A stretch of 64,000 nucleotides of DNA from a virus (Duplodnaviria > Heunggongvirae > Uroviricota > Caudoviricetes): the IMG/VR virus record IMGVR_UViG_3300035703_000003; one strand, 5' to 3'. Position 1 is the first letter of the stretch; the number at the start of each line of letters is the position of its first letter. The notes under the pieces are model-generated. The model was not told where the DNA came from. It was given only the letters and a program-made list of their open reading frames with translations, and did no database searches. Position numbers and translations under genes: made by a program. Positions 72-10,682 of the stretch are shown piece by piece.

Positions 72-147
72 TGGCCCTTGGGGACGGAATCGAACCGCCG
101 ACACCATGCTCTTCAGGCATGTGTTCTACCAACTGAACTACCCAAGG
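72..147 (-). tRNA. tRNA-Phe (anticodon GAA), CCA encoded
   Basis: Hand-folded cloverleaf on the reverse complement: acceptor CCTTGGG/CCCAAGG, D-arm GTTCAGTTGGTAGAAC, anticodon loop CTGAAGA, T-loop TTCGATT, 3' CCA. Confidence 0.8.
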
Positions 148-154
148 ATAAACT

Positions 155-240
155 GGTGGGGATGGATGGATTCGAACCAACTCACCTCTACAGGAACGGA
201 TTTACAGTCCGCCGCGACTCTCCAACTTCGCCGCATCCCC
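155..240 (-). tRNA. tRNA-Tyr (anticodon GTA), long variable arm, CCA encoded
   Basis: Acceptor GGGGATG/CATCCCC, anticodon stem GCGGA/TCCGT with loop CTGTAAA, about 14-nt variable arm, T-loop TTCGAAT. Confidence 0.75.
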
Positions 241-254
241 AAATTTAAACAGTA

Positions 255-470
255 ACCTTTTGCACCTGCACGATGTTGAATCGAACTCATCGTTTAGGGA
301 CTCGAACCCTGCTTCATTTACTCTCTTGCACCAGCAAGATCCAACTTATAGTTGGTCTAAAATGCTACTCCTGGTGGGGAACGATCCCACACGGAAAGTC
401 TCGAACCTTTCCGTAACCTCTTGCAGGAGCGGGCCTTGGGACTTTCGAGATCCTTTAGGCTTTGTCTATT
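255..470 (-). ncRNA. Unresolved tRNA-like or structured RNA region (1-2 elements)
   Basis: Two T-loop-like motifs (GGGACTCGAACCC at 297-309; TCTCGAACC at 399-407) and an AACGATCCC hairpin (376-390), but I could not close canonical acceptor stems by hand. Confidence 0.3.
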
Positions 471-546
471 TGGTGCTTCTAGGAAGAATCGAACTTCCTT
501 CTAGACGCTTATCGGGCGCCTGCCTTTCCATTAGACAGTTAGAAGC
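471..546 (-). tRNA. tRNA, anticodon GAT (Ile) as folded; C at position 33 is atypical
   Basis: Acceptor GCTTCTA/TAGAAGC, T-arm GGAAG-TTCGATT-CTTCC, anticodon stem GGCGC/GCGTC with loop CCGATAA, CCA encoded. D-stem register is irregular. Confidence 0.5.
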
Positions 547-551
547 ATTAT

Positions 552-628
552 TGGTCCCGCATACGGGTTTCGAACCCGTTTCTCCGACTTGAAAGGCCAG
601 CGACCATCACCGAGTAGTCCTATGCGAG
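552..628 (-). tRNA. tRNA-Glu (anticodon TTC)
   Basis: Acceptor CTCGCAT/ATGCGGG (one G-U), T-arm ACGGG-TTCGAAA-CCCGT, anticodon stem CTGGC/GTCGG (two G-U) with loop CTTTCAA, CCA encoded. Confidence 0.6.
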
Positions 629-635
629 ATATATT

Positions 636-711
636 TGGTTGTCCAGGGTGGGATTGAACCACCGACCCCAGTCTTATCAGGACTGTGCTACTACCACTGA
701 GCTACTGGACA
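636..711 (-). tRNA. tRNA-Ile (anticodon GAT)
   Basis: Acceptor TGTCCAG/CTGGACA, D-arm GCTCAGTGGTAG, anticodon stem CAGTC/GACTG with loop CTGATAA, T-arm GGTGG-TTCAATC-CCACC, CCA encoded. Confidence 0.75.
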
Positions 712-1045
712 ATAAACTCTATTTTTACAAAAGGCAGCGAGGGGATATGCTCCGGGTCCCTAAACCTGCTCCTCTTTTCGTTACACTAGGGAATGTAACT
801 ACTTCTGCTTACTTGCTCTGCCTATTCTAGAAATAGAGTAATTGGTAGCGACATTTGGTAACGCTCCAAATCTTCAGCCTTATGAGAGCCGAGTCGGCAC
901 TTGCCGTGTCGCCAAAATATTATTAGCTTGCTGCTAGATTTTTACTCTGCCGTTATCGCCGGACATTTCATCTTCTAACACGCCCATTTGAGTTTGTTTA
1001 TAGTGGTTACTCGCAGTCTCGTTCCGCATTTCCACTTTAGCCTAA

Positions 1046-1079
1046 TAAAAAACCCTCCTAGTATCTCTACTGGAGGGTG
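1046..1079 (-). terminator. Rho-independent terminator (minus orientation)
   Basis: CCCTCC...GGAGGG hairpin followed by a T-run on the minus strand (A-run on plus), downstream of the 1290..2051 gene. Confidence 0.5.
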
Positions 1080-1289
1080 TCATTGCGTTTATGTGTATCT
1101 ACACTTATCCGCTATAACCCTCCGAGAACTCAAAGAGATACTCGTGGCGTTCAAAACGCTTAATGCTAATCATGTGTTTAGTATTGTGAGTCATCTCTTG
1201 ATTTCCTTTTGCTTATGTTAGTAATATAGTGCTTTTATTTATCATCGTCAACCGTTTTCTTTGACAATTTAGACGTATTACAAAAAAAA

Positions 1290-8782: not shown

Positions 8783-9069
8783 GATATTAAAACAGAGAGG
8801 AAAGAGTGAGTAATAAAGTTCTAGCAAAGTGCATGTAGCGTGGTATACAGACCTACTTTTGCAAAAAACAAATCGCAATCTACAATGCTTATATTTCCGA
8901 TTATCAACATGCAGTGTCAATTAAGACGAATATAATAAAATCGGAACACATAGCTGGAGACCATAAACGATCATGTTATGCAAGTAACGCTTGCCCGCCT
9001 CTATTCTCTTTTCTCTTTCCTACTCTGGGTAGTTTCGGGCAAGTTGCCTTGCCCTGGGTCTACCAAAAC

Positions 9070-9669
9070 TTATTCTACAATACCTGCACGAGCAAGGAAA
9101 TGCTCTGCTTCATCGTCAAGCACAATTGTAGTGCTTACGTTAAGCTCTAGCAACGAGTCTTGCAGTGCAGTCTTTACTCGCTTTAGACGAGCGAGTTCGG
9201 CTTTGAATTCTTCGATCTTCTCTTTATCGAAGATGTTAGTAGTGACAGTGTCGTCACCGAAACGACCGTAAACGTCTGCTTTGTCACGACCTTTAATCTT
9301 GCCTAGCTTACCGACAAGAACATCGTTAGCTACTGCAGGCTCTAGCTTGCTTAGACGCCCGTATAGCTGCATGTCTTTGTCTAGCATTGCTACATCAGCT
9401 AGCAAGCTATCAATACCGGAAGCGGCGTTAGCATGGGCTACTGCCTTGCGAATTTCGTAAAGAACGCCTAGCAGCTTGCCACGAGTAGCAAGATGTGTCT
9501 CAAAGCGGTTAGTAGCTTCGGACACCTTTTCGCTAGGCTTTTCGAATTCGTTAACCGAAACTTCTGTGCCTAGATCTAGTGTGCCTAGCATTTCATTAAT
9601 TGCGTGTTGTAGTGCGTTTGCTTTACGAAGTGAGATTTCCATTACTTTGTCCTTTGTGTTCGTTTTCAA
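9070..9669 (-). CDS. Hypothetical protein
   Basis: 199-aa ORF with overlapping genes upstream and downstream, consistent with operonic packing. Confidence 0.55.
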   Translation of the reverse strand: MKTNTKDKVMEISLRKANALQHAINEMLGTLDLGTEVSVNEFEKPSEKVSEATNRFETHLATRGKLLGVLYEIRKAVAHANAASGIDSLLADVAMLDKDMQLYGRLSKLEPAVANDVLVGKLGKIKGRDKADVYGRFGDDTVTTNIFDKEKIEEFKAELARLKRVKTALQDSLLELNVSTTIVLDDEAEHFLARAGIVE

Positions 9670-10246
9670 TTTTCTTTGCGATTACTTTGTGTAGACCTGG
9701 ATTAATAACTAGCATTTGTGTTACAACGTTTTCACGAATATAGTTTCTAATGTATGAAGTGTCAAGATTTGATTTGTCTTCAACCCAACTTACATTTTTT
9801 CGTTTACACCAATCAACAAACTCGTGCTTTCTGTTTAACCTAAACGGCCTAATAACGTTTTCATTTTGGTAAGGAATAATTTTACCCTCACCGTGCATAC
9901 TTGACCAAATCCACGTTTCTACACAATCATCCAAATGATGACAAGTGATAACAGGCTTTTGCCAGGCATTTAAAACTTTATAACGTTCGTTCCTCCAGTG
10001 TTCTTCTTGGCTTACGCCCTTAGGAACAACAGTGTTGATATACGAAGTGTATAGTTTTAGTTTAGTATCGTCTGCATACTGCAAAAGAAACTTGTGTGCT
10101 TGTTCACTTGTTTCTGTGCCGTGATGCACAAATTGTAGAGTAATACGATGATTTCTTTTTAGAAAATCAACAATAGCCATACTATCAACGCCGCCACTGC
10201 AAGCAATTACAACGTCTCTGGGTAGTTTGCTTTGGACTTTAATCAT
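9623..10246 (-). CDS. tilS: TilS-like tRNA(Ile)-lysidine synthetase catalytic domain (PP-loop ATPase)
   Basis: PP-loop SGGVDS near the N-terminus. Blocks FVHHGT, CHHLDDCVETW and WVEDKSNLDTSYIRNYIR resemble the TilS N-domain motifs (HVHHGL, QHLDDQCETF, WIEDESNQDDSYDRNFLR) as I recall them. It lies immediately downstream of two CAU tRNAs. Confidence 0.7.
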   Translation of the reverse strand: MIKVQSKLPRDVVIACSGGVDSMAIVDFLKRNHRITLQFVHHGTETSEQAHKFLLQYADDTKLKLYTSYINTVVPKGVSQEEHWRNERYKVLNAWQKPVITCHHLDDCVETWIWSSMHGEGKIIPYQNENVIRPFRLNRKHEFVDWCKRKNVSWVEDKSNLDTSYIRNYIRENVVTQMLVINPGLHKVIAKKIENEHKGQSNGNLTS

Positions 10247-10262
10247 CGCATTACTCTAGTTT

Positions 10263-10338
10263 GGTGGAAGGACTGGGACTCGAACCCAGATAGTTACGTT
10301 TATGAGACGTATGCATTCACCAATTATACTATCCTTCC
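10263..10338 (-). tRNA. tRNA with anticodon CAT (copy A; Met, fMet or Ile2)
   Basis: Acceptor GGAAGGA/TCCTTCC perfect, anticodon stem TACGT/ACGTA with loop CTCATAA, T-arm CTGGG-TTCGAGT-CCCAG, CCA encoded. Confidence 0.7.
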
Positions 10339-10342
10339 GATT

Positions 10343-10419
10343 TGGTAGGGGATACCGGACTTGAACCGATAACCTGCCGATTATGAGTCGGACGCTCTAA
10401 CCAATTGAGCTAATCCCCC
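10343..10419 (-). tRNA. tRNA with anticodon CAT (copy B; Met, fMet or Ile2)
   Basis: Acceptor GGGGGAT/ATCCCCT, D-arm GCTCAATTGGTTAGAGC, anticodon loop CTCATAA, T-arm ATCGG-TTCAAGT-CCGGT, CCA encoded. Confidence 0.7.
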
Positions 10420-10425
10420 TAACTT

Positions 10426-10502
10426 TGGTGCCCCCGGTCGGACTCGAACCGACACTACGCAGATTTTAAGTCTGCTGACTCTACCTATTGGCCTACAAGG
10501 GC
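10426..10502 (-). tRNA. Class-I-shaped tRNA with anticodon TAA (Leu codon UUA)
   Basis: Same scaffold as 8706..8782 (acceptor 3' strand CGGGGGC, D-region GGCCAATAGGTAGAGT, identical T-arm). Anticodon stem GCAGA/TCTGC with loop CTTAAAA, 5-nt variable loop. Confidence 0.6.
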
Positions 10503-10509
10503 GTAGTTC

Positions 10510-10592
10510 TGGTGCGGGCACCCGGACTCGAACCGGGACGCATTGAGCAAGAGATTTTAAGTCTCTCGTGGCTACCATTTCACCATGCCCGC
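10510..10592 (-). tRNA. tRNA-Leu (anticodon TAA), class II with long variable arm
   Basis: Acceptor GCGGGCA/TGCCCGC, anticodon stem AGAGA/TCTCT with loop CTTAAAA, about 11-nt variable region, T-arm CCCGG-TTCGAGT-CCGGG, CCA encoded. Confidence 0.65.
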
Positions 10593-10605
10593 ATAAGTTG
10601 TTTTT

Positions 10606-10682
10606 TGGCGGTCCCTGCAGGACTCGAACCTGCGACCCACTGCTTAGAAGGCAGTTGCTCTATCCAGCTGAGCTAAGGAACC
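10606..10682 (-). tRNA. tRNA-Arg (anticodon TCT)
   Basis: Acceptor GGTTCCT/AGGGACC, D-arm GCTCAGCTGGATAGAGC, anticodon stem ACTGC/GCAGT with loop CTTCTAA, T-arm GCAGG-TTCGAGT-CCTGC, CCA encoded. Confidence 0.75.

Follow-up and report, generated by a model that had tools for sequence, protein, structure and literature searches.

The tRNA array at positions 72..10682 of a 64,000-nucleotide (nt) stretch of DNA from a tailed virus (IMG/VR record IMGVR_UViG_3300035703_000003; the whole stretch is termed the window hereafter) is very probably the translation-RNA island of a jumbo myovirus, in which the tRNA genes are real and maintained and form a functional, self-contained decoding module. ARAGORN identifies 30 tRNA genes between these positions, all on the minus strand, and a 31st, tRNA-His(GTG), that is clipped by the left window edge (c[-3,69] when 1..11500 is searched). 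The Rfam tRNA model RF00005 yields 30 matches on the same strand, with scores of 31-75 bits against a threshold of 29 and E-values from 1e-3 to 1e-14; this set takes in the cut His gene, and its sole miss is the tRNA-Arg(TCT) at 3742..3816. On the plus strand, neither program makes a single tRNA call in the array region. A genomic N73-CCA is found in 28 of the 30 ARAGORN models, and in 29 of the 30 once a gene with a CAU anticodon is read as 6837..6912, ending in ACCA; the sole complete element lacking it is a tRNA-like module inside a GOLLD RNA (5658..5730). The acceptor stem of 7 base pairs (bp) is fully paired in 27 genes and irregular in tRNA-Trp and in an initiator-like tRNA(CAU), while the GOLLD module does not form it. 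The complete genes of the window cover 18 amino acids (aa), to which the cut His gene is added.

A first-pass annotation of this DNA had described about 30 CCA-encoding tRNA genes on the minus strand, and both programs bear it out; the anticodons that it listed are those returned by ARAGORN, the type of automated prediction it had proposed as a check. The "several tRNA-like elements" that it mentioned fit four further calls made by ARAGORN at a lowered threshold (287..367, 843..913, 6194..6279 and 7540..7630). The element with the triplet UCA at 5658..5730, which it counted as a tRNA, is instead a module of the GOLLD RNA and not a free tRNA gene. Its general picture, a large, co-oriented and CCA-encoding tRNA complement adjoining a lysidine synthetase gene in a phage, is supported. 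A permuted tmRNA (6371..6750), also proposed by ARAGORN at the lowered threshold, was rejected: two good tRNAs overlap with it, and Rfam gives no match for it even at E<=1. The source is a phage, since a large terminase, a tail sheath protein, a UvsX-like recombinase, a T4-type Gp23 capsid protein and a Gp20 portal, together with an SSB, are encoded in the window.

Gene content, codon usage and lysidine synthetase

Followed along the minus strand, the array starts behind a sigma-70-like promoter (10744..10772, TTGACA-17-TATTAT with a TG extension) that marks its upstream end. The first genes are tRNA-Arg(TCT) (10606..10682), a tRNA-Leu(TAA) with an 11-nt variable region (10510..10592), a second, short tRNA-Leu(TAA) (10426..10502) and two tRNAs(CAU), named "b" (10343..10419) and "a" (10262..10338). 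The lysidine synthetase gene (9623..10246) and a 190-aa open reading frame (ORF, 9070..9642) come next, followed by tRNA-Leu(CAA) (8706..8782), a structured RNA named R1 (7461..7641), tRNA-Asn(GTT) (7023..7098), tRNA-Ser(GCT) (6928..7015), the initiator-like tRNA(CAU) (6837..6912), tRNA-Ser(TGA) (6656..6746) and tRNA-Asp(GTC) (6576..6649). Beyond the GOLLD RNA (5333..5795) are found tRNA-Ala(TGC) (5145..5220), tRNA-Gly(GCC) (5063..5137) and a tight run with 6-8 nt spacing (4273..4777) that holds two Pro(TGG) genes, Gln(TTG), Leu(TAG) (4528..4604), Cys(GCA) (4611..4694) and Thr(TGT). The distal part comprises tRNA-Gly(TCC) (3904..3978), tRNA-Trp(CCA) (3823..3896), a second tRNA-Arg(TCT) (3742..3816), tRNA-Val(TAC) (2966..3040), tRNA-Thr(AGT) (2887..2960), a CAU-anticodon tRNA-like gene (843..913), tRNA-Ile(GAT) (636..711), tRNA-Glu(TTC) (552..628), a variant tRNA-Ile(GAT) (471..546; Rfam 41 bits), tRNA-Tyr(GTA) with its long variable arm and encoded CCA (154..240), tRNA-Phe(GAA), also with encoded CCA (72..147), and the tRNA-His(GTG) cut at its 3' end (1..69; Rfam 35 bits). 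All of these tRNAs are called by both ARAGORN and Rfam, with two exceptions: the Arg gene at 3742..3816, for which Rfam has no match even at E<=1, and the element at 843..913, which is based on the lowered ARAGORN threshold and on sequence reading.

Neighbouring genes within the runs lie 4-15 nt apart, and between one run and the next lie either spacers devoid of ORFs or small ORFs of no assigned family (1290..2051, 2055..2858, 3125..3637 and 8295..8735). As the His gene is cut at the window edge, the array extends to the left of the window. A 253-aa ORF used to reach the DNA on that side led only to a 1.9-kb contig on record, and a related locus, L021, served as a stand-in for the sequence beyond His. 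To note, an RpiB/LacAB-type sugar-phosphate isomerase gene adjoins the array at 13691..14143 on the minus strand (PF02502, E 6e-57).

The tRNA complement matches the codon usage of the phage itself. The GC content at third codon positions (GC3) is 0.265 over 16,979 codons of 44 ORFs, and AUA represents 305 of the 1074 Ile codons (28%). In most of the boxes read by a U34 tRNA, the codon ending in A ranks first or ties for first, with relative synonymous codon usage (RSCU) values of 2.37 for GCA, 1.93 for ACA, 1.71 for GAA and 1.59 for CAA, and the doubled tRNAs match UUA (RSCU 2.27), AGA (2.08), CCA (1.79) and AUY. Under the standard wobble rules, the set in the window reads ~91-93% of the phage codons; the unread Lys AAR and Arg CGN codons amount to 7.1% (9.0% if U34 skips C-ending codons). 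The corresponding tRNA genes probably lie outside the window, because the array runs off its edge and relatives carry them nearby: Lys(UUU) is located 0.85 kb beyond His in L021, and Arg(ACG) is present in the related locus L012. The first-pass annotation had suggested that the phage substantially re-tunes host decoding. Since the tRNA set fits the A/T-ending codons of the phage, this is a reasonable proposal as far as the phage's own codons are concerned.

The first-pass annotation also named TilS. A TilS-type gene does exist at 9623..10246: its product reaches 107.5 bits with TIGR02432 (cut-off 93.6) and matches PF01171, and S17, G18, G19, D21 and S22 of its PP-loop motif SGGxDS are invariant in 28 homologues. 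What is encoded, however, is only the N-terminal PP-loop catalytic domain, 207 aa long, and it is called mini-TilS here. The full-length TilS model NF007942 gives 63 bits against a cut-off of 606, the mini-TilS profile aligns only to the N-domains of the structures 1wy5, 1ni5 and 3a2k (residues ~12-228), and no C-terminal tRNA-binding domain follows, the protein ending at residue 207. Mini-TilS has more than 2,300 homologues, all ~200 aa long, and occurs in 519 IMG/VR viral contigs of up to 342 kb, which shows that a TilS family consisting of the catalytic domain only is spread widely among large phages. A set of 102 viral and metagenomic loci was fetched for comparison (L numbers in the text); together with the window they hold 518 tRNAs, 95% of which have a CCA.

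The two tRNAs(CAU) lie directly upstream of mini-TilS, and "b" (10343..10419) is situated 97 nt upstream of its start codon. The best E. coli matches of "b" are annotated tRNA-Ile (85% identity over 61 nt), and on this likeness it is probably an Ile2-like tRNA and the TilS substrate. For "a" (10262..10338), which may be an elongator Met or a second Ile2, no E. coli match was obtained. The 190-aa ORF follows mini-TilS in the window, in close relatives and in several distant loci, and has 305 homologues of ~187 aa; it exhibits no Pfam match, nor any PDB sequence match with E below ~0.5. It was considered as the missing TilS C-domain and rejected: its AF2 model is all-helical (pLDDT 92), with no Foldseek match in the PDB at E<=1e-3.

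Irregular tRNAs and stem replacement between strains

The imperfect acceptor stems noticed in the first-pass annotation are real in both genes concerned, as seen in the ARAGORN models and in the sequence. In tRNA-Trp (3823..3896, G73), the pair G1-C72 is followed by the mismatches U2.U71 and C3.C70, then by four normal pairs. The tRNA(CAU) at 6837..6912 has U1-A72 and A73-CCA, but the 3' strand of its acceptor stem harbors an extra bulged A and a G5xA mismatch. Over its full length, this gene shares 78% identity with an E. coli tRNA-Met that occurs in 4 copies per genome; the copy number and the sequence of tRNA-fMet suggest the initiator type.

Both genes had been proposed to be pseudogenes or tRNAs needing repair, that is, either decaying copies or molecules whose acceptor stem is repaired post-transcriptionally before use. 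Such a history would account for the two adjacent mismatches of Trp, whose close homologues in L026 and L086 are fully paired, and for the CAU allele of the window, which has one mismatch more than that of L001, where the varying position 68 gives a G5-C pair; L026 possesses both the irregular form and a canonical initiator-like gene, which could make the former redundant. The wider comparison points the other way. The Trp gene is 100% identical in L001 and L002, sister strains that are 3% divergent overall and in the flanks of this gene, and the distant L034 (mini-TilS 58% identical to that of the window) exhibits U.U and U.U, again pyrimidine-pyrimidine, at the same 2:71 and 3:70 positions. 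The CAU genes of the window, L001, L024, L025 and L026 have in common U1-A72, A73-CCA and the bulged A, within a 3' acceptor strand CCCA[A/C/G]CGCA, while their other stems change only by compensatory pairs, from UUUGG/CCAAA to ACUGG/CCAGU in the anticodon stem and from GUGGG/CCCAC to GAAGG/CCUUC in the T stem; distant relatives have the canonical acceptor stem. The Trp and CAU genes score 48 and 51 bits, well over the tRNA threshold, and we know of no acceptor-stem editing system in bacteria or phages. Because they are conserved across strains and the other stems of CAU change in a compensatory way, the two genes have the pattern of maintained RNAs, which may decode; decay or repair appears improbable.

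Other tRNAs depart from the canonical architecture in their variable region. Three tRNA-Leu genes, with the anticodons UAG (4528..4604), CAA (8706..8782) and UAA (10426..10502), are 77 nt long, with a 5-nt variable loop in place of the long arm and with A73. By comparison with E. coli tRNA-Leu, they keep the Leu-type D-loop AAUUGGUAGA, and they could still be leucylated. This short-arm form represents 13 of the 26 unique Leu tRNAs across the clade, and similar short genes are annotated as tRNA-Leu in isolated Pseudomonas, Sinorhizobium and Ochrobactrum phages. Conversely, the 84-nt tRNA-Cys (4611..4694, U73) carries a 14-nt variable arm and has 1 nt between its acceptor and D stems. The long-arm form is that of 12 of the 21 unique Cys tRNAs across the clade, while the gene of the window itself has no match among 50,697 deposited phage genomes. 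Should aminoacylation of these short Leu and long-arm Cys tRNAs follow their anticodons, the genes would provide natural tests of the tRNA identity rules.

Further irregularities are spread along the array. The variant tRNA-Ile(GAU) at 471..546, with C33 and 3 nt between the acceptor and D stems, is missing from L021, the alignment skipping 475..550. The T-loops of Arg-UCU at 3742..3816 (AUCGUUA) and His (AUCGUAA) have A54 and U58, the reverse of the usual T54-A58; this Arg gene is identical in L001. Thr-AGU (2887..2960) possesses an A34, which to our knowledge is unusual in bacteria outside Arg-ACG; it stands alongside a Thr-UGU, and its divergent allele in L001 has the same anticodon. The fourth CAU gene, at 843..913, has a plain hairpin for D-arm; its T-loop reads AGCGTTA, and ACCA comes after its 7-bp acceptor stem. 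It is kept in L001 and L021, a homologue is found in L040, and an element of similar build is located at 17720..17791 of L029.

Two sister strains of ~97% identity, both metagenomic, are on record: JGI Ga0480350_0000011 (122 kb) and ENA KRAE22-1 scaffold_40 (92 kb). When the window (2872..13168) is compared with L001, the divergence is 3.11% in tRNAs, 3.10% in ORFs and 3.10% in the other intergenic DNA. At 3.1%, simple arithmetic predicts ~2.4 changes per gene and about two identical genes; 18 of the 24 tRNAs shared with L001 show no change at all, the 58 differences being confined to six genes. The L001 alleles show block replacements: four of the five anticodon-stem pairs in Ala (5145..5220), the entire six-pair stem of the variable arm in Ser-GCU (6928..7015), the entire acceptor stem of Thr-AGU, and parts of Val and of the initiator-like CAU, Leu-CAA differing by one single change. 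Pairing is kept in nearly all of these replacements, and all genes of the 4273..4777 run are identical in L001. This looks like purifying selection on most genes, combined with a cassette-like allele exchange or diversification of a few. With strains available at 97%, 90% and lower identity, in which stems are swapped next to identical neighbours, the clade offers a natural experiment on the constraints acting on phage tRNAs. A further feature of L001 can be mentioned: where the window has 95 nt (6747..6841), its array contains a 1.1-kb insertion with a 305-aa ORF (13580..14497), weakly resembling SAM-dependent methyltransferases (RsmD/PrmA-like), that the window does not have.

These observations bear on the reason for which the array is selected. 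Instead of fixing a codon mismatch, it could serve mainly for counter-defence or self-sufficiency, by replacing host tRNAs that are cleaved or depleted in infection, whether by anticodon nucleases, by other tRNA-targeting defences or by the phage's own host shut-off; non-host-like features would then confer resistance on the phage tRNAs. This explanation shares the functional tRNAs with the decoding module proposed above and differs from it only in the selective reason. It draws on the near-completeness of the set, which is not restricted to rare codons, on the clade-wide non-canonical architectures (13/26 short Leu, 12/21 long-arm Cys, odd T-loops and acceptor stems), and on the fact that 97%-identical strains differ in few tRNAs by whole-stem replacement, as diversifying selection or cassette exchange would give. 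Precedents exist: the tRNAs of phage T5 evade anticodon nucleases via changes in their anticodon loops (PMC10264068), and a putative anti-defence role has been ascribed to tRNA array units (PMC12803027). Against this, the stem swaps may be mere recombination with related phages, and the strong agreement of tRNA copy number with phage codon preference is what codon tuning would lead one to expect, whereas counter-defence does not specifically call for it. Counter-defence as the main reason is conceivable rather than probable. The near-complete set and the fast-swapping, remodelled stems favour independence from the host pool, the copy-number match leans towards codon tuning, and both may hold.

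GOLLD RNA, boxA-like leaders and the R1 RNA

An RNA missed by the earlier sequence-only reading sits between tRNA-Ala and tRNA-Asp. Positions 5333..5795 match the GOLLD family RF02032 over the whole model (1-416 of 416) with 193.7 bits, against a gathering score of 150, and E 5e-53; this part is the conserved 3' domain. GOLLD is also present in L001, L002, L024 and L025. The adjoining segment 5796..6190 is ORF-free, rich in GNRA hairpins and conserved in these same four GOLLD-carrying relatives, with a fold z-score of -4.1 for 5796..6345 as compared to shuffled sequences. This segment probably represents the variable 5' domain of GOLLD, the full RNA then being ~860 nt long. The Rfam alignment places the tRNA-like module 5658..5730 in the linker that joins the 5' hairpin of GOLLD to its conserved core. 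It is 73 nt long, with 5 acceptor pairs, a 5-nt variable loop and no CCA. In L001 and the sister strains its "anticodon" is UGA instead of UCA, and the anticodon stem stays paired by compensatory changes. Its location in the linker, the lack of CCA, the short stem and the UGA of the sister strains indicate a structural tRNA-like module.

The label given by ARAGORN to this module, tRNA-SeC(tca), and its Rfam tRNA score of 48 bits would suit a working opal-suppressor or selenocysteine (Sec) tRNA, by which the phage would recode UGA; some large phages are known to recode stop codons by means of suppressor tRNAs. A tRNA-Sec is characterized by a 13-bp acceptor/T branch (8/5 in bacteria), a long variable arm and the anticodon UCA. 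The module has none of this architecture, its variable loop being 5 nt long; it possesses neither a CCA nor more than 5 acceptor pairs, and its triplet becomes UGA in the sister strains. Moreover, the GOLLD match encloses it, at the linker position in which tRNAs occur in other GOLLD RNAs (PMC12286853, PMC12990946), and translation table 11 gives long unbroken ORFs in the window, up to 2672 aa. A suppressor or Sec function is therefore extremely improbable.

Sigma-70-like promoters (10-11 of 12 matches) precede the tRNA runs at 10772..10744, at 7277..7249 (CTGACA-17-TATAAT, upstream of the Asn-Ser-CAU run), at 6375..6347 (TTGACA-17-TATATT, 11/12, before the GOLLD unit) and at 1251..1223. Two units exhibit the same succession of a promoter, a hairpin and then the motif GCTCTTTGA(A/C)AAT, at 6302..6314 and 7703..7715. 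For the second, the promoter-like sites upstream, near 7776 and 7868, were read by eye and are below the rules of the scanner. The two 13-mers, CGCTCTTTGAAAAT at 6302..6314 and GCTCTTTGACAAT at 7703..7715, are the only exact matches of the pattern GCTCTTTGAMAAT in the window; allowing up to 2 mismatches, 13 sites are found as compared to 4.5 expected, a number that none of 100 shuffles reaches. The boxA of E. coli is GCTCTTTAACAA, and we take the two elements to resemble the boxA of rrn antitermination leaders. By consensus, they have the arrangement of an rrn-type leader, with boxA after a promoter and a hairpin and before a stable-RNA operon. In five bacterial genome hits, three of them Hyphomicrobiaceae metagenome-assembled genomes, the same 17-mer precedes the 16S rRNA gene by 30-230 nt. 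Used as a host clue over 185,579 genomes, this 17-mer gives at least 120 hits in many phyla, 5 of them before 16S, against ~140 estimated by chance; it is no guide to the host and tells only that some rrn leaders contain the motif.

In both units the boxA-like element is followed by a long-stem RNA. The leader of the GOLLD unit (6174..6344), delineated from sequence and fold, comprises the hairpin, the boxA-like element and then a tRNA-like element, cloverleaf-like and with a T-arm, that is closed by a stem of ~22 bp. Behind the second boxA leader, R1 (7461..7641) is a ~180-nt RNA in which the invariant arms GTAAGTAGAG and CTCTACTTAC form a ~20-bp stem around two T-arm-like hairpins and one other. 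RNAalifold applied to five distinct sequences proposes 52 pairs, with 97% of the cells paired; among these sequences 14 pairs show compensatory change, as compared to 1-2 in slid controls and a level reached by 0 of 500 shuffles. The derived covariance model scores 155-211 bits in 6 relatives and 75 bits in L024, and R1 is kept down to relatives whose mini-TilS is 54% identical. On the GOLLD-unit leader the model yields a weak paralogue match (27 bits, E 0.007). The GOLLD and R1 units thus share one layout: promoter, hairpin, boxA, long-stem tRNA-like element and stable RNAs. The long stems and tRNA-like folds would act as processing signals for RNase III or RNase P. In Rfam, R1 has no match at E<=1. 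Its assignment to a known family was rejected, as the weak YrlA hits fall on ordinary tRNAs elsewhere and its likeness to Y RNAs is a resemblance only; that of a widespread class was rejected too, since the model finds R1 in only 8 of 93 sources, closely to moderately related.

Several smaller elements are found close to these RNAs or further along the array. A third copy of GTAAGTAGA is located near 7375. On the minus strand, a conserved element of ~70 nt, AGTGG..TGCGGAACGAGACTGCG..CCACT TATAAACAAA.. (969..1037), lies just after a terminator-like hairpin near 1085..1055; it is also present in the distant L009, L011, L034 and L040, and its outer stems covary. Upstream of the last tRNA run, the segment 1094..1250 of the same strand combines the promoter 1251..1223, a ~29-codon ORF and a strong terminator-like hairpin CCCTCC..GGAGGGTTTTTT. 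Finally, the ORF-free spacer 241..470 between Ile and Tyr was found by a motif scan to contain three T-arm-like hairpins with the loops GGTTCGAGAC, GGTTCGAGTCC and AGTTCGATTCA (398..406, 299..307 and 278..286); it is ~90% conserved in L021, and its hairpins may be tRNA remnants or tRNA-like modules.

Decoding model, phage clade and known systems

Put together, these features suggest how the island may work. The runs would be transcribed as polycistronic precursors behind the sigma-70-type promoters, at least two units being headed by rrn-type hairpin-boxA leaders, and host RNase P and 3' nucleases would trim these precursors into tRNAs. Addition of CCA would be unneeded, since it is encoded, and host synthetases would charge the products. 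With one U34 or G34 tRNA per codon box and extra copies for UUA, AGA, CCA and AUY, the phage would not depend on host tRNAs for reading the A/T-ending codons of its own genes. Mini-TilS would turn the C34 of the adjacent Ile2-type tRNA(CAU) into lysidine, so that AUA is read as Ile. GOLLD would be co-transcribed in the array, its linker containing, as those of other GOLLD RNAs do, a tRNA-like module that does not decode.

Five points weigh against this scheme. The window has no tRNA for Lys or for Arg-CGN, even though CGT ranks first among the Arg codons of the phage. The codon match concerns the phage codons only. Some of the irregular RNAs, namely Trp, the initiator-like CAU, Ile with C33, Arg and His with A54/U58 and the CAU gene with a hairpin D-arm, may be inactive in decoding. 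The boxA call rests on likeness to the consensus, with few genomic examples upstream of 16S rRNA. Last, mini-TilS is devoid of the domains that bind tRNA in the solved TilS structures, and its substrate and activity are assumptions.

A broader proposal sees in the island a remodelled RNA toolkit of the whole clade of more than 500 jumbo-phage contigs, and not a set of tRNAs copied from the host. Its odd parts (the short Leu, the long-arm Cys, the hairpin-D-arm CAU, the bulged initiator-like tRNA, the Trp mismatches, the domain-less TilS and the ~180-nt long-stem RNAs behind rrn-type boxA leaders) would have been selected so that the tRNAs stay chargeable by host synthetases while becoming invisible to the tRNA-targeting defences of the host, and the long-stem elements would punctuate processing and release GOLLD and the tRNA runs. 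We regard this proposal as speculative and rather unlikely.

The phage is a jumbo myovirus with a T4-like module, belonging to the clade of more than 500 viral contigs that encode mini-TilS. Its terminase is 58% identical to those of PA5oct-group phages (Pseudomonas phage PA5oct), 54% to that of Sinorhizobium phage Phosso and 50% to that of Agrobacterium phage Atu_ph07. At the nucleotide level, a comparison of 1..11000 with 50,697 phage genomes returned matches to single tRNA genes only, and no DNA-level relative. Among the related loci, mini-TilS is 90% identical to that of the window in L024 and L025, 79% in L026, 67% in L028 and 54% in L086. Two giant ORFs are found among the structural genes, both on the minus strand (39143..47161, 2672 aa; 51217..57033, 1938 aa).

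The tRNA-His gene provides a clue to the host. In the window it has a T at position -1 and no encoded G-1, and its homologue in L021 (1025..1099) ends in A73-CCA; most clade members (L012, L028 and L034 among the loci compared) likewise have a His with A73 and no G-1, and L029 has the 8/4 form. A tRNA-His without G-1 and with A73 is characteristic of a group of Alphaproteobacteria and their phages (PMC5389517). The tRNA array of L029 also contains, at 14867..15161, a permuted two-piece tmRNA of the alpha type (107 bits). On account of this His type and this tmRNA, an alphaproteobacterial host appears rather likely.

As a tRNA array, the island is one more case of a well-documented class, and its value resides in the material that it offers for further work. 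Jumbo-phage tRNA arrays, phage TilS and GOLLD within tRNA arrays have all been published already. The boxA leaders, R1, the long-arm Cys tRNA, the hairpin-D-arm CAU tRNA, the domain-less TilS family and the cassette-like stem swaps may be new, and the Leu tRNAs without a long arm are possibly a new side feature. GOLLD has a defined transcription context here, its upstream side comprising a promoter, a boxA leader and a tRNA-like element and its downstream side tRNA-Ala; this could help to explain how the RNA is made and what its role is.

The comparison with known systems illustrates the shared and distinct parts of the island. Leaders of rrn operons, in which a boxB hairpin precedes boxA, display the same promoter-hairpin-boxA order before long stable-RNA units; here, however, these units are phage tRNA/GOLLD units and not rRNA, and most genomic hits of the 17-mer are at chance level. 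Bacterial TilS (1wy5 from Aquifex, 1ni5 from E. coli and 3a2k from Geobacillus) shares with mini-TilS the PP-loop ATP-pyrophosphatase N-domain and its SGGxDS motif, and the equivalog-domain cut-off of TIGR02432 is passed; its gene also adjoins an Ile2-type tRNA(CAU) in a genome heavy in AUA. In contrast to the bacterial enzymes, every C-terminal tRNA-binding domain is missing from mini-TilS, which counts 207 aa instead of 317-464 aa.

GOLLD RNAs located in tRNA arrays, with a tRNA in their linker and assembling as 10- to 14-mer cages, have been described (PMC6582537, PMC12286853, PMC12990946). The GOLLD of the window resembles those of other phage, prophage and mycobacterial arrays by its full-length match, its location in an array and a 3' domain placed after what is probably the long, variable structured region, and it shares with the Mycolicibacterium GOLLD and with env-38 a tRNA-like insert in the single-stranded linker (PMC6582537, PMC12286853, PMC12990946). 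It differs in that its module is not a plausible decoder (no CCA, short acceptor stem, strain-variable "anticodon"), in that it occurs in a jumbo myovirus of a probably alphaproteobacterial host, and in the boxA leader and long-stem tRNA-like element that precede its gene.

The closest parallels are the arrays of other jumbo myoviruses: Xanthomonas phage XacN1 has 56 tRNAs (PMC5852040) and Ralstonia phage RsoM2USA has 44 tRNAs and a TilS (PMC8504454), and a TilS has also been reported in jumbo phages of the MIJ3/PA5oct type (PMC6892783). The phage analyzed here has in common with these phages the T4-like structural genes, tens of clustered and co-oriented tRNAs for nearly all amino acids, and a phage lysidine synthetase. 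Its TilS is a catalytic domain of 207 aa, whereas ORF84 of RsoM2USA is 349 aa long, and its array also includes GOLLD and boxA-type leaders, in a genome without a nucleotide-level relative among the 50,697 compared.

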